Shown here: piece by piece, positions 18,001-24,000 of the stretch | How the letters are laid out: each line of letters opens with the position of its first letter | Position numbering within the stretch: the first letter of the stretch is position 1 | NCBI GenBank assembly: GCA_963815215.1 | Contig: CAWFFU010000009.1 | Coordinates: forward strand, 1-64,000 | Direction of reading: 5' to 3' | Source: an uncultured Trueperaceae bacterium | GTDB lineage: Bacteria > Deinococcota > Deinococci > Deinococcales > Trueperaceae | DNA length: 64,000 bases | Program-made: the position numbers

Positions 18001-21000
18001 AGCTGTGGGCCGACGAGCGCCCGGATCTGGTGGTGCTCGACGTGATGCTGCCGCGTCTCGACGGCTTCACGCTGTGCGAGCGCATGCGCGACGCCGGCTA
18101 CGACACGCCGGTGCTCTACCTCAGCGCCCGCGGCGAGGCCGACGACCGGGTGCGGGGGCTGCGCGCGGGAGGGGACGACTACCTCCCCAAGCCCTTCCAC
18201 CTGCCCGAGTTCCTGTTGAGGGTGAAGGCGCTGCTGCGACGCCGCGGCTGGGCCGGGCAGGCCCCGCGCGCGGGCTTCCACTTCGCCGGCCACTTCGTCG
18301 ATTACCGCTCTTGGACGGCCGAGCTCGCCGGCGGTGGACGCGAGCCGCTGGGGGAGCGCGAGTTCCGCATCTTCCGGGTACTGGCCGAGCGCGCCGGCGA
18401 GGTCGTCAGCCGCGACGACATCCTCGACGCCGTGTGGGGCGGCGACGCCTTCCCGTCCAGCCGCACCGTGGACAACTTCGTGCTGCGGCTGCGCAAGCTG
18501 TTCGAGCCCGACCCGTCGGCCCCGCGCTACTTCCACAACGTCTGGGGCGTGGGCTACCGCTTCACGCCCGACGGCGAGGCCGAGGAGGGCCCCATCGATG
18601 CCTGACGCAACGACCGACGAGGCGCTGTTCCTGCGTGCCGCACGTGGCGAGGACACCCCGCGCGCGCCGATCTGGATCATGCGCCAGGCGGGCCGCTACC
18701 TGCCGGAGTACCGCGCCCTCAAGGAACGCCACAGCTTCTGGGAGATGGTGCGCACGCCCGAGCTGGCCGTCGAGGTCACCCTGCAGCCCGTGCGGCGCTT
18801 CGATCTGGACGCCGCCATCCTGTTCAGCGACATCATGACGCCGCTTCCGCCGATGGGGGTGGACCTCGACTTCGACCCCGGGCCGGTCTTCGCCGAGCCC
18901 GTGCGAACGCGCGCACAGATCGACGCGCTCGCCGTGCCGGACGGGGGAGAGCTGGCGCCGTTCGTGGCCGACGCGCTGCGGCTGCTGCGCGCGGCCTCGC
19001 CCGTGCCCGTGATCGGTTTCGGAGGCGCGCCTCTGACGCTGGCGGCCTACGCCGTGCAGGGCGGGGGCAGCAAGGACTTCGCCGCCTTCCGCGGCTTCCT
19101 GCGCGCCGAGCGCGCCGCCGCCCACGCGCTGCTCGACAAGCTCGCCGAGGTGACGCTGCGCTACCTGCGCATGCAGATCGACGCCGGCGCTCAGGCGCTG
19201 CAGCTCTTCGACTCGTGGGCGGGGCTGCTGGACGAGCGCAGCTACCGCGAGTTCGGCCAGCCCTACGCGCAGCGCGTGCTGGAGGGGCTCGCCGACGCGG
19301 GCGTGCCGCGCATCTACCTGGCTGTGGACGCCGGCCATCTGTACCCGGCGATCGACGAGCTGGCCGCCGACGTCGTCAGCGTCGACTGGCGCCGGCCTCT
19401 CTCCGCCGTGCGCCGCGCGCTGCCGGGCAAGACGCTGCAGGGGAACCTCGACCCCGCGGCCCTGCTGGGCCCGGCCGAGGCCCTGGCGCCGGAGGCCGAA
19501 CGGGTGCTGCACGAGGGTCTGGGCGGGCCCCACGTCTTCAACCTCGGCCACGGCATCCTGCGGCAGACCGACCCCGATGCGGTGGCGCGGCTGATCGACG
19601 TGGTGCACGGCTTCGACCGGCGCGCCGCGGCCTGGAGCGACGCCGTGCCCCGGCGGCCGTCCGCGGCCGGCAGAGGGCGCGCGTGAGCCGGCGCGAGCGC
19701 GTCGTCGAGGTCATGCGCTCCGGGCAGGCCACGCTGATCGACGGCTTCGAGGCGATCGACGGGCAGGGCCGCTTCCGGGAGCATGCCTGGGACCGTCCCG
19801 GCGGGGGAGGCGGCAGCGCCCGGGTGCTCGAGGGCGGCCGCGTCTTCGAGCGTGCCGGCGTCAACCTCTCCGTGGTGCACGGAGACGCCGTCCCGGACAG
19901 CCTGGCGCGGCAGCATCCCGCCGCCGCCGGCAAGCCCTTCTTCGCCACCGGGGTATCGATGGTGCTGCATCCGGCCAATCCCTACGTGCCGGCCTTCCAC
20001 GCCAACTTCCGCTACTTCGAGACCGGCGCCGAAGGCGACCCCGACGCGATCTGGTGGTTCGGCGGCGGCGCCGACATGACGCCCAGCTATCCCTTCGCCG
20101 AGGACGCGGTGCACTTCCACCGCCGCCTCGAGGCCCTGTGCGCGCGCCACCCGGGCGTCGCCGACTACCCGCGCTGGAAGGCCCGTTGCGACGACTACTT
20201 CACCGTCCGGCATCGCGCCGAGATGCGCGGCGTGGGCGGCATCTTCTTCGATGAGATCGGCGCCCCCGAGGGAGGCGACTTCGCTTCTGAGCTGGCGTTC
20301 GTTGCCGACGGCCTCGGATCGCTGCTGGAGAGCTACCTGCCGGTGGTCGAACGGCGCATGGACCTGCCCTTCGGCGAGCGCGAACGCGACTGGCAGCTCT
20401 ACCGGCGCGGGCGCTACGTCGAGTTCAACCTGGTCTACGACCGGGGAACGCTGTTCGGGCTGCAGACGCAGGGCAACATCGAGGCGATCCTGATGTCGAT
20501 GCCGCCGCTGGCGCGCTGGACGTTCGACCTGCGCCCCGAGCCCGGCAGCCCCGAGGCTGCGGCGCTGCCGTTCTTCCAACCGCGCGACTGGGCGGGCGCG
20601 GAAGCGCGGGCGCTCGAGGGCGGCACGCCGTGACCGGCGAACGATGCGTCGCGCTGCGCTCCGGCCGGGAGCGGTTCGGCGGCTGCCGCGCCCAACCCCT
20701 GAGAGGACGGTGACCGCATGGGCAACGGACCCACGGGAATCGTGATGATGAACCTGGGAGGGCCGAAGGACCTCAGCGAGGTCCAGCCCTTCCTGCTCGA
20801 GCTCTTCGCCGACCGCGAGATCATCCAGCTGCCGCTGCAGGACTGGCTCGGCCCGTTCATCGCGCGCCGCCGCACCAAGAGCGTGCAGCGCAACTACACC
20901 GACATCGGCGGCGGCTCGCCCATCCTGAAGTGGACCGAGGAGCAGGGGAGGGGCATGGTCGAGCGGCTCGACCGGCTGTCGCCCGACACCGCTCCGCACA

Positions 21001-24000
21001 AGTTCTACGTGGCGTTCCGCTACGTCCACCCCAAGAGCGAGGACGCGCTGAAGGCCATGAAGGCCGACGGCGTGAAGCGCGCCGTGGCGTTCACGCAGTA
21101 CCCGCAGTTCTCCTGCTCCACCACCGGCTCCTCGCTCAACGAGCTGTGGCGCGCCGCGAAGCGACTCGACCTGGCCGACGCCTTCGAGTGGAGCGTGCTC
21201 GACCGCTGGCCCACCCACCCGCGCTTCGTGGAAGCGATGGCGAAGACCGTCGAGGACGGCCTGGCGCAGTTCAGCCAGGACGACCGCGAGGACGCGCTGA
21301 TCGTGTTCAGCGCGCACTCGCTGCCGATGAGCGTGATCAACCGCGGCGACGCCTACCCCGGCGAGATCGGCGCCACCGTCCACGAGGTCATGGAGCGGCT
21401 CGACCACGGCTACGAGTACCTGATCAGCTACCAGAGCTCGGTCGGGCCGGTGCCCTGGCTGGGGCCGTCGACCGAGCAGGTGGTCAAGGACCTCGGCGCC
21501 AAGGGGCGCAAGAACGTGCTGGTGGTGGGCATCGCCTTCACCAGCGACCATATCGAGACGCTCCACGAGCTCGACATCGAGTACGGCGAGCTGGCCCACG
21601 AGGTGGGCGTCTCCAACTTCAAGCGCGCGCCGGCCCTGAACGGCCTGCCGCTCTTCCAGGACGCGCTCGCCGAGGTGGTGGCCGAGCACCTCGCCAGAGG
21701 CGAGGCCTGCACCCGCCAGTACGGGCTGCGTTGCCCCGGCTGCACCAACGAGCAGTGCCGCGCCATCCTCAATCCGGTGGCGAGCTACCGCCGCACGGCG
21801 CTCGGCGCCAACGGCGAGACGAAGCGCTGAGGCCGGGGCGGGCGACGGCGCCCGCCCCGTTGGGGGATGCGAGCGCGCGGCGCCCGTCCCGCCCGGCCCA
21901 CCGCCCGCGCGGTCCCGGCCCGGCCGCCCGTTCCCGCGAAGCGGCGCTCCGGCGCCCCCAGCGCTCCGGCGCCCTACGCCGGGCTCAGCCCTCCGGCGGC
22001 CGCCCGCTCTGGAACGGCAGCGGCTCGCCGGTCTCCAGGAGCGTCTTGAGACCGCTCAGGGTCTCGTACCAGCCGCCGCCGGCGCCGCTGTCCTCGGCCT
22101 GACCGGAAGCGACGGCCTCCCACATGGGTGCCCCCGCGAGGTCGTGCGTCACGGTGAGCCTGGTGACGCCGCCGCGCACTGGGTCGATCTCCCAGGTCAG
22201 GCGCGTCGCGGCCTCCGCGGCGAGCTCGGGGGTCATGGTCAATGCTCCAGGTCTGCACCAGGCGCCGCGGCGGGTCGACCTCGAGGACCTCGCCCTCCCC
22301 GATCACGTCGGGGATCTCCGGGAAGGCCTTCATGCCCTCGTTGGCGTGCGCGCGGAAGGCGCCTCCGGGACGCAGGTCGTACGCGACCAGCGGGGCGTAG
22401 CCGTAGCGCACGGTCCACTCCGGCCGCGTGATGGCGTCCCAGACCGCCTGCGGCGGGGCCTGGATGTAGATCCGGTACACGTGGACGGTACGGGGGGATC
22501 CTGCGTCAGCGCTCATCGTCATCGCTCCTCGTGGTTGTCGGTCGCGCGGCCGGCCGCGTGGCACGGGCGCCGTTCATCGGTTCGCCCGCGGCGCGGCGTA
22601 GCGCAGCGATCCGGGCGTGGTCAGCGCCTCGCCGGTCTCCAGGTAGGTCTTCAGGCCCGACAGGACCATCGGCCAGCCGCCGTAGAGCTGCGCGTCGGCG
22701 CCCTCGGGGAGCTCGTCGTGGGTGACGAGAAGGCGGCACGAGTCGCCGACGGGGTCGATCTGCCAGGTCACGCGCGAGACGCCCATGGAGCGGACCTCGT
22801 CGCTCCAGAGCGCGCGGAAGCTCTGGACCAGGCGCCGCGGCGGCTCCACCTCGAGGTTCTCGCCCTCCCACAGGAGGTCGGGCACCGCGCGCGACCGGGC
22901 CTCGTAGTGGGAGCCGACGGTCCAGTCGGTCACGATGCCGACGCCGAAGTGGAAGATGCGCCGCTTCTCGGGATCGGTGATCGCGTCCCACAACCGCTCG
23001 GGCGTCGCCTTGATGTAGATCTCGAACACGCGTTCCATCCTGCTGGCCTCCAGCTCGTGCTTGAGTCCGCTCAGCGCGGCGACCCAGGGCTCGGCGAACT
23101 TGCTCACCCAGCGGTCGTGGACGAGGCGGATGGGGACGGGGTTGAGGTGGTGCAGCTTCTCCCTTCCGGAACGGCGGGTGACGATCAGGCCGGCGTCTTC
23201 GAGGACGCGCAGGTGCTTCATGACCCCGAAGCGCGTCATGGTCACCTCGGCGACGAGCTCGCCGAGCGTGCGGCCGTCCCGCTCGAAGAGCCGGTCGAGG
23301 AGGAGCCGGCGGGTGGGGTCCGCGAGCGCCTTGAAGATGGGGTCGTCGTCCTCCACACGGTGGACTATAGGTGACTATCTGGTCACACGTCAAGCATCGA
23401 TCACCGCTCCGGCCTAGACCCGCTCGGCGCACGCCAAGCGCGGCCCGCCACGCTCCCGCCCGGCCCCCTAGCCTTCTCCCAGGAGAGGAGGTGGCCGTGG
23501 GCCGCAGCGTCATCGCACGTCCGGCAGGCGGCGGCCCGCGCCGCCGCCGGCACGCGCGCCGCACGCCCCATCACCGGGCGCCTCCTAACCGCGCGCCTCC
23601 TAACCGCCTGCCTAGCGGCCGCCCTCCTGGCCGCAGGGCCCGGCGCCAGCGCCCTCGGCGTGGTCCGCAGCATGCGCTGGCGCGCCCACCCGTACCGGGT
23701 CACGGCAGGGTCGGCAACGGCAGGGTCGGCAACCGCAGGGTCGGCAACCGCAGGGTCGGCAACCCTCCCCGTGGCGTTCCTCCAGCACGGCCCGCGCGAC
23801 TGCGGCCCGGCGGCGCTCGCCACCGTGCTCGCCTGGCGCGGCCGCCCGGCAGGGGAAGCGCCCATCCTCCGCATCGCACACCTGCGCGCCGACGGCGTCA
23901 GCCTCGCCGAGCTGGCGCGACTGGCGGCCGCCTTCGAGCTGCCGGGCGCCTGGTACGCCGTCCCTCGCCACAGCCTGGGCTCGCTGCCCGTGCCCTTCAT

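Follow-up and report, generated by a model that had tools for sequence, protein, structure and literature searches.

The heme gene cluster

The window analysed here is a 64-kb stretch from an uncultured Trueperaceae bacterium, whose genome (97.15% complete) is called the source genome below. It carries a cluster of heme genes that encloses a kinase and a regulator, and a further heme gene lies downstream.

12393..13586, + strand: hemA, glutamyl-tRNA reductase, start of the cluster (TIGR01035, E 8e-43, under the cut-off)
13583..14533, + strand: hemC, hydroxymethylbilane synthase (TIGR00212, above cut-off)
14530..15337, + strand: hemD, uroporphyrinogen III synthase, in two frames here (PF02602 on the second frame)
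15334..16548, + strand: hemB, porphobilinogen synthase (NF006762, above cut-off)
16630..17847, + strand: sensor histidine kinase within the heme cluster (kinase families)
17844..18605, + strand: OmpR-type response regulator (profile match; position conserved in Trueperaceae loci and family f3 genomes)
18598..19686, + strand: hemE, uroporphyrinogen decarboxylase (TIGR01464, 374 bits; cut-off 303)
19683..20633, + strand: hemF (CgdC), oxygen-dependent coproporphyrinogen III oxidase (NF003727, 387 bits; cut-off 297; PDB matches)
20718..21830, + strand: hemH, eukaryote-type ferrochelatase, 370 aa, without presequence (TIGR00109, PDB search, AlphaFold model)
29278..30828, + strand: hemY, putative PgoX-type oxidase (TIGR00562, above cut-off; best PDB match Myxococcus 2IVD)

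The first-pass annotation had described a hemE-hemF-hemH operon, which is borne out: all three products exceed their NCBIfam cut-offs (TIGR01464, NF003727 and TIGR00109). These genes form the end of a longer cluster that begins at 12393, with the order hemA-hemC-hemD-hemB-kinase-regulator upstream. HemA is 51–54% identical to its same-position homologues in four f3 genomes, and the kinase keeps its position in those genomes and in many Trueperaceae loci. The first hemD frame ends in a stop at 14787; the gene is a single frame in two other loci (L001 and L002), and the window has about 25 surplus bases at the junction. Early-step genes found in the source genome are hemA, hemC, hemB, hemL and hemE, with hemD frame-broken in the assembly. 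Contamination or mis-assembly was ruled out as the source of hemH because 96 of 120 Trueperaceae genomes have a eukaryote-type ferrochelatase gene, in most loci in the same order.

Sequence and predicted cofactor of the ferrochelatase

HemH is the single ferrochelatase of the source genome. It scores over the cut-off of the ferrochelatase families (PF00762/TIGR00109) and has the catalytic His, Glu, Phe and His, while its Atlas annotation reads "ferrochelatase" and nothing more specific. The residues of interest are as follows.

21114..21116, + strand: Cys133, internal predicted [2Fe-2S] ligand (aligned to a human cysteine; in 120/120 closest homologues)
21315..21317, + strand: His200, equivalent to human H263, the catalytic histidine (alignment; role from PMC9133952)
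21732..21758, + strand: Cys339-x2-Cys342-x4-Cys347, C-terminal predicted [2Fe-2S] ligands (alignment)

The PDB search scores given earlier were reproduced (human 439.6, yeast 332.6 and Bacillus 131.9 bits). Compared with human and metazoan mitochondrial ferrochelatase (PpfC; 1HRK, 2QD3), HemH has 54–55% identity, and its AlphaFold model (pLDDT 95.9) matches 1HRK with a TM score of 0.91 and an rmsd of 1.2. The two share the active-site His, Glu, Phe and Arg-Tyr and, as had been claimed, all four cluster cysteines: one internal and a C-x2-C-x4-C tail, at the human positions. All four occur in the 120 closest homologues, in 116/116 wider bacterial-type rows and in 115/116 rows of the eukaryote set. 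The first two predicted ligands are 205 residues apart, against 206 in the human enzyme. Like the human enzyme, HemH is likely to carry a [2Fe-2S] cluster, with Cys133, 339, 342 and 347 as its ligands.

Unlike the metazoan enzymes, HemH is bacterial and operon-borne, has no presequence, has a longer, oomycete-like tail, and has Leu13 for human Met76 opposite the catalytic histidine. The leucine is found in all 120 closest homologues. Tyr at this position, a marker residue of CpfC (PMC10427985), occurs in ferrochelatase rows on the Thermus/Deinococcus side (genome G030 and families f2, f3 and f4); HemH, with Leu13 and its cysteine tail, does not have the features of the Firmicutes/Thermus-type CpfC. 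The 56% identity to vertebrate ferrochelatase reported earlier stands within the 53–57% found here, depending on the alignment, but the label "animal-type" does not, as HemH is 53% identical to frog, fungal and oomycete enzymes alike and 56–58% identical to eukaryote-like rows of unnamed taxon.

Exchange of heme routes in Deinococcota

Thermus and Deinococcus make heme by the coproporphyrin pathway (CgoX, CpfC, ChdC), which has the steps through HemE in common with the source genome. Beyond HemE the two differ: no ChdC was found in the source genome, which has both HemF (CgdC) and HemN (CgdH), as in a protoporphyrin pathway, and two Myxococcus-like HemY copies, the second behind hemN on another contig (C13). 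The window HemY matches Myxococcus xanthus PgoX (2IVD) at 298 bits and the Bacillus enzyme (3I6D) at 197, in line with the earlier PgoX claim; 2IVD is the best solved match of both copies, while the HemY of ChdC genomes, used as controls, prefers 3I6D. By this similarity only, source-genome HemY would be of PgoX rather than CgoX type.

ChdC is scarce and HemF common in the family, as had been noted; the counts found here are 2/120 and 84/120 Trueperaceae genomes. In the other three Deinococcota families (132 genomes), ChdC is present in 131 and HemF in none. HemH is only 28–35% identical to Thermus/Deinococcus-type ferrochelatases, and its placement by native descent is rejected (AU p=1.7e-5), which upholds the distance stated earlier. 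Four f3 genomes have the same hemA-C-D-B-kinase-regulator-hemE block followed by chdC-hemH-hemY, so that the genes after hemE were apparently replaced. The swap of heme routes between Trueperaceae and the rest of Deinococcota is real.

The statement that the family as a whole uses the protoporphyrin route is too wide, however. Two Trueperaceae genomes have ChdC and no HemF, as first reported, and their ferrochelatase differs (31–34% identity). Both are nested within Trueperaceae in an RpoB tree (100/97 and 100/99; one gene, LG+G4), which rejects the idea that they are basal relics. One of them, G030, keeps beside hemA a HemY 51% identical to the window HemY. The ChdC operon of G030 has a lower GC3 (0.65–0.72), which is weak evidence because one neighbouring gene is also at 0.68. 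In addition, neither hemB nor hemE was found in any of 5 near-complete genomes of genera g12 and g9, a sublineage without the pathway that nevertheless has ferrochelatase.

Distribution of the enzyme in bacteria

HemH is a eukaryote-type enzyme that is not special to Trueperaceae, being found also in Gemmatimonadota, Myxococcota and Chloroflexota. Anaerolineae had been named as the next relatives, but matches equally close or closer come from Myxococcota (one protein, 72% identity) and from Gemmatimonadota (67–69%). The spread is patchy, with 9/113 genomes in one Myxococcota class and 2/301 in a Chloroflexota sample. A Myxococcota donor of hemE-hemH was suggested by identities of 61–62% (HemE) and 64–72% (HemH); it was dropped because HemE of the four f3 genomes is closer (65–68%) and because the three groups are interspersed in the HemE tree, where no Myxococcota donor is visible.

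A ferrochelatase survey scores Gemmatimonas phototrophica as motif-positive, does not include Truepera, and has 0/5 Deinococcus-Thermus and 0/8 Chloroflexi as motif-positive (PMC8529089). The C-terminal cysteine motif is already of a known kind in bacteria, in Caulobacter and Mycobacterium ferrochelatases, the M. xanthus enzyme has an insertion-type motif, and a bacterial group adjoining the eukaryotes is not mentioned in the sections consulted (PMC8529089).

Relation to eukaryotic ferrochelatase

Eukaryote rows are monophyletic (100/98) in two trees, one of them built after the cysteine tail and the long rows had been removed; in that tree, three successive starred nodes place bacterial-type rows outside the eukaryotes. 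In the main tree, a taxon name is lacking for 19 of the 26 eukaryote and for 12 of the 27 bacterial-type rows. The closest sister of the eukaryotes varies: P0452 in one tree, Anaerolineae in a quick tree and none resolved in a third. In these trees the eukaryotes are one clade inside or beside a scattered bacterial group that holds their closest relatives found. Five alternatives, as well as native descent, were rejected by AU tests, in which less searching went into the constrained trees than into the free one, a bias that favours rejection. Among them is Trueperaceae as special sister of the eukaryotes (p=0.003).

The reading we prefer, with a probability of about 0.68, is that Trueperaceae gained both the protoporphyrin route and HemH from other bacteria, and that the eukaryotic enzyme came from within or next to the same bacterial group. 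Alternatively, though this seems unlikely to us, the bacterial group could be one clade sister to eukaryotic ferrochelatase, perhaps originating in a stem eukaryote, or in a lineage since lost, before it spread among bacteria. The patchy bacterial distribution would suit this, and such a tree, the best so far from a constrained search not run to its end, passes the AU test (p=0.062–0.067; p=0.14 in a further run); nesting of the eukaryotes in the bacterial group is therefore left as one of two placements. Maximum-likelihood trees, however, show the bacterial-type rows as a grade. Immediately outside lie P0158, P0164 and P0163, short proteins that have neither presequence nor tail and that we read as bacterial, and P0134, with three tail cysteines only, fits a stepwise build-up in bacteria.

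The eukaryotic enzyme might instead be mitochondrial after all, the type having been lost by most living alphaproteobacteria or its carriers missed; this we regard as improbable. A mitochondrial ancestor is the source favoured in PMC8529089. Our genome scans left out alphaproteobacterial genomes, and Pseudomonadota are commonest in the near Atlas clusters, a low-resolution measure that is not a taxonomy. Yet eukaryotes joined to Shinella, the one named member of a thin alphaproteobacterial sample and of E. coli-like type, are rejected at p=4e-37. Joined to three rows of unnamed taxon, which we take to be of Caulobacter-like type, they are rejected at p=3.5e-6. No alphaproteobacterial name occurs in the 80 homologue loci or 120 homologue rows listed, and searches of plasmids and phages turned up no named representative of the C-terminal type of alphaproteobacteria.

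A crown-eukaryote source for Trueperaceae or the entire bacterial group is very improbable: the 53–57% identity to vertebrates, the oomycete-like tail after Cys347 and an earlier IQ-TREE grouping with a eukaryote-like subclade speak for it, but union with the oomycete-containing subclade is rejected in both tested placements (p=0.002 and 0.004), so that the earlier suggestion of a place inside the eukaryotic clade is not supported, Trueperaceae plus eukaryotes are likewise rejected, hemH is one open frame without presequence and with the GC3 of its neighbours (0.97), and 112/116 eukaryote rows have Met where HemH has Leu.

Under the preferred bacterial origin, other bacteria would have supplied a Trueperaceae ancestor with hemF, a PgoX-type hemY and the eukaryote-type ferrochelatase, and this ancestor would have lost chdC and its native CpfC. 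Later, two lineages would have regained ChdC routes, and one sublineage would have lost the pathway while retaining ferrochelatase. As predicted from the gene content, HemE would yield coproporphyrinogen III, HemF (or HemN without oxygen) would decarboxylate it, HemY would oxidise the product and HemH would add iron last. Transfer may have scattered the enzyme group among Trueperaceae, Gemmatimonadota, Myxococcota and Chloroflexota, and animal, fungal and oomycete ferrochelatase may derive from in or next to it before these lineages split, rather than from the sampled alphaproteobacterial types; the direction of transfer is what we infer here. A broader proposal, to which we give slightly worse than even odds, is that, before animals, fungi and oomycetes diverged, their mitochondrial ferrochelatase, [2Fe-2S] site included, was acquired from a bacterial family that is not alphaproteobacterial and lives on in these four bacterial groups, and that some Trueperaceae and Chloroflexota keep the pathway-less enzyme for porphyrin salvage or iron release.

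Significance

Genera g12 and g9, which retain ferrochelatase but not the pathway, resemble heme-auxotrophic nematodes (Brugia) in this respect. The Brugia enzyme is reported as alphaproteobacterial (PMC9133952), whereas the Trueperaceae genera keep a eukaryote-type enzyme. A bacterial group near the eukaryotes challenges the stated assumption that mitochondrial ferrochelatase arrived with the alphaproteobacterial symbiont, and our reading of HemH agrees with recent findings that point to additional bacterial donors in early eukaryote evolution (PMC13468126).

The human ligand pattern in a bacterium is also of practical interest. To our knowledge, the bacterial [2Fe-2S] ferrochelatases studied so far have other motifs and tolerate cluster loss, so HemH, a soluble-host bacterial enzyme with that pattern, would offer a direct comparison. 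Within Deinococcota, the family presents a clean, countable exchange of two heme routes, including reversals and losses.

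Change of heme route in Trueperaceae

In genome counts that cover kin and are hence non-independent, the last genes of heme synthesis were compared between Trueperaceae, to which family f1 is taken to correspond, and three other families, two of which (f2 and f3) are taken by inference as Deinococcaceae and Thermaceae. Of the 132 genomes in the three other families, 131 carry ChdC and none carries HemF. In Trueperaceae, ChdC occurs in 2 of 120 genomes, HemF in 84 (one fewer without genome G033) and HemN in 36. Ferrochelatase was matched in 74 of the 132 genomes at 28–35% identity to the window enzyme, and no match was found in 58 genomes of f2, a family in which many genomes have part of their sequence missing from the search. 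In Trueperaceae it was matched in 99 of 120 genomes: 96 (again one fewer without G033) at 67–96% identity, two at only 31–34%, which are the two ChdC genomes, and one as a 35-residue scrap that was left out. A real swap of pathways in Trueperaceae is well supported.

The hemE, hemF and hemH genes, which were confirmed in place and score above the curated thresholds for their families (HemE, HemF and ferrochelatase), end a longer cluster, hemA-hemC-hemD-hemB-kinase-regulator-hemE-hemF-hemH, whose order is wholly or partly conserved in most of 80 related loci. Features in and beside this cluster are as follows.

14530–15337: hemD, split over two frames, with about 25 extra bases compared to related loci L001 and L002
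16630–18605: kinase-regulator pair, within the heme cluster of Trueperaceae and of four f3 genomes (loci L191, L193, L194 and L195)
21974–23356, minus strand, just past hemH: ArsR-AHSA1 fusion regulator and adjacent AHSA1-like frame
23660–29211: C39 peptidase (PF03412, weakly FapD-like), then a putative lipoprotein acyltransferase, a small frame that is rich in repeats and looks secreted, and further frames without NCBIfam matches

The split of hemD could be genuine or could stem from faulty assembly. The kinase-regulator pair, which still adjoins hemH at four loci where hemE-hemF is absent (L067, L068, L072 and L074), is possibly a dedicated heme regulator, and the stretch at 23660–29211 could encode a secreted peptide or fibre.

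Of five f3 regions retrieved, four have hemA-C-D-B-kinase-regulator-hemE in common with the window (43–68% per gene), followed by chdC-hemH-hemY. The change therefore lies after hemE. Both ChdC genomes look like reversals, because an RpoB tree nests them within Trueperaceae, beside members that carry both HemF and a eukaryote-type ferrochelatase. One of them, G030, has chdC-hemE-hemY-hemH elsewhere in its genome and retains a window-like HemY beside hemA. The two ChdC routes (L088, 8499–12720, and L089) have different ferrochelatases, a Tyr-type one in G030 and, in G039, a Phe-type one that carries cysteines at its C-terminus; this suggests two separate re-acquisitions in nested family members.

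The source genome is 97.15% complete and has a single ferrochelatase, HemL, a true HemN (TIGR00538, 548 bits) and two HemY; as first noted, it lacks ChdC. Its HemY proteins also appear to be of PgoX type, as had been claimed, since the best match of both is Myxococcus PgoX (298 and 272 bits, versus 197 and 219 for Bacillus CgoX). Two control HemY, one from a ChdC operon and one from Deinococcus radiophilus, show the reverse preference. A hemN-hemY pair on another contig (L082, C13, 30–2949) resembles the hemN-hemH-hemY arrangement in several of the sampled Myxococcota genomes (L095, L096, L103 and L106).

A ferrochelatase of eukaryote type

In a PDB search, the window ferrochelatase matches the human enzyme at 439.6 bits, yeast at 332.6 and Bacillus at 131.9, and its predicted structure (pLDDT 95.9) superposes on human 1HRK with a TM score of 0.91 and rmsd of 1.2. 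In the alignment with the human chain, Cys133, 339, 342 and 347 each fall opposite a cysteine, these being the human cluster ligands C196, C403, C406 and C411, and from this conservation we infer a [2Fe-2S] cluster. Position 13 is Leu in the window, Met in eukaryotes and Tyr in CpfC-type rows, a comparison that draws on part of PMC10427985. Judging from these residues and part of PMC9133952, porphyrin would bind first, His200 with Glu280 and His278 would then take off the pyrrole protons, and iron insertion would be the final step. Protoporphyrin IX is the likely substrate on gene content, because HemF, HemN and PgoX-type HemY are present and ChdC is not.

Similar enzymes are found in other phyla. 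An NCBI Myxococcota record (L076) has hemE-hemH-hemY with a ferrochelatase 72% identical to that of the window; 9 of 113 genomes of its class matched at E≤1e-75, as did 2 of 301 Chloroflexota genomes at E≤1e-60. A profile built from four deep members recovered 120 rows, among them five named Gemmatimonadota, Thermoflexales, Roseilinea and Deltaproteobacteria CG2_30_63_29. All four cysteines are present in 116 of 116 new rows, the tail motif being itself part of the search profile. The deepest group member, P0134, has the three tail cysteines and Gln at the Cys133 position. The closeness of this bacterial group to mitochondrial ferrochelatase is well supported.

Phylogenetic position and origin

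In the main tree (78 rows, LG+C20 PMSF), 26 eukaryote rows, seven of them named (frog, bird, anemone, crayfish, two fungi and the oomycete Globisporangium), form one clade (100/98), which with all bacterial-type rows makes a 53-row clade (100/97). Within the larger clade, Trueperaceae sit at a tip, surrounded by rows from Gemmatimonadota and Myxococcota. A 55-row tree, built after 27 rows that were long or redundant had been taken out along with the Cys133 column and the tail, and with 4 rows added, again has eukaryotes as a clade (100/98), with bacterial-type rows outside at three starred nodes. The nearest sister of eukaryotes varies between trees; P0452, which like P0458 has no presequence, is sister to them in one (99/95) and not in the other.

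AU tests, in which constrained trees were given shorter searches than the unconstrained one, reject in the 78-row tree the placement inside the eukaryotic clade that had been entertained earlier (bacterial rows joined to the subclade that includes the oomycete, p=0.002 and 0.004), and bear out the distance from the Thermus and Deinococcus side (Trueperaceae with f2 and f3 enzymes, p=1.7e-5). Also rejected there are Trueperaceae with eukaryotes (p=0.003), eukaryotes with Shinella (p=4e-37 to 7e-37) and eukaryotes with three unnamed rows taken to be Caulobacter-like (p=3.5e-6). One clade of all bacterial-type rows is not rejected (p=0.062–0.067 with 78 rows, p=0.14 with 55). A crown-eukaryote source of the bacterial enzyme is therefore disfavoured, and the eukaryotes may be either nested in the bacterial group or sister to it. 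In a HemE tree, Trueperaceae group at 100/100 with the four f3 genomes and the Myxococcota class of L076, without direction. Any claim on the origin of the mitochondrial enzyme is tentative and depends on better taxon sampling.

Literature searches found no paper on this bacterial group; the Truepera exception or the branch could already figure in Koreny 2022 and Dailey 2017. In its accessible main text and supplements, the PMC8529089 survey does not include Truepera; its motif scoring gives 0/5 for Deinococcus-Thermus, 0/8 for Chloroflexi and a positive for Gemmatimonas phototrophica, and it suggests a mitochondrial-ancestor source. The accessible portion of PMC13468126 names Myxococcota and Planctomycetota as donors, with Chloroflexota minor, and its supplement treats K01772 at module level only. 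A search of the available PMC12872463 supplements gave no match, and the group does not appear in the accessible portions of PMC4231631, PMC4870792, PMC8233740, PMC13564367, PMC10740692, PMC11914136 and PMC6078071.

Members without the pathway

The route had been assigned to the whole family, but genus g12 and near-complete genomes of g9 and g12 lack pathway genes. HemF, HemN and ChdC are all absent from 11 of 11 g12 genomes, of which 8 matched ferrochelatase (one by the 35-residue scrap). Five genomes from g12 and g9 that are nearly complete gave neither hemE nor hemB, and four of the five retain ferrochelatase. Among 15 genomes chosen for a hemH standing apart from hemE-hemF, hemB is missing in 8, including that of L067 (titled Truepera radiovictrix MAG), and it is missing in both Chloroflexota genomes tested (genomes of unstated completeness in both sets). 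The eukaryote-type ferrochelatase is present, with hemB (and hemE where looked for) not found, in G063, G092, G045 and G008 and at L067, L077 and L109. Genomes that keep ferrochelatase without hemB are candidate heme auxotrophs or porphyrin scavengers.
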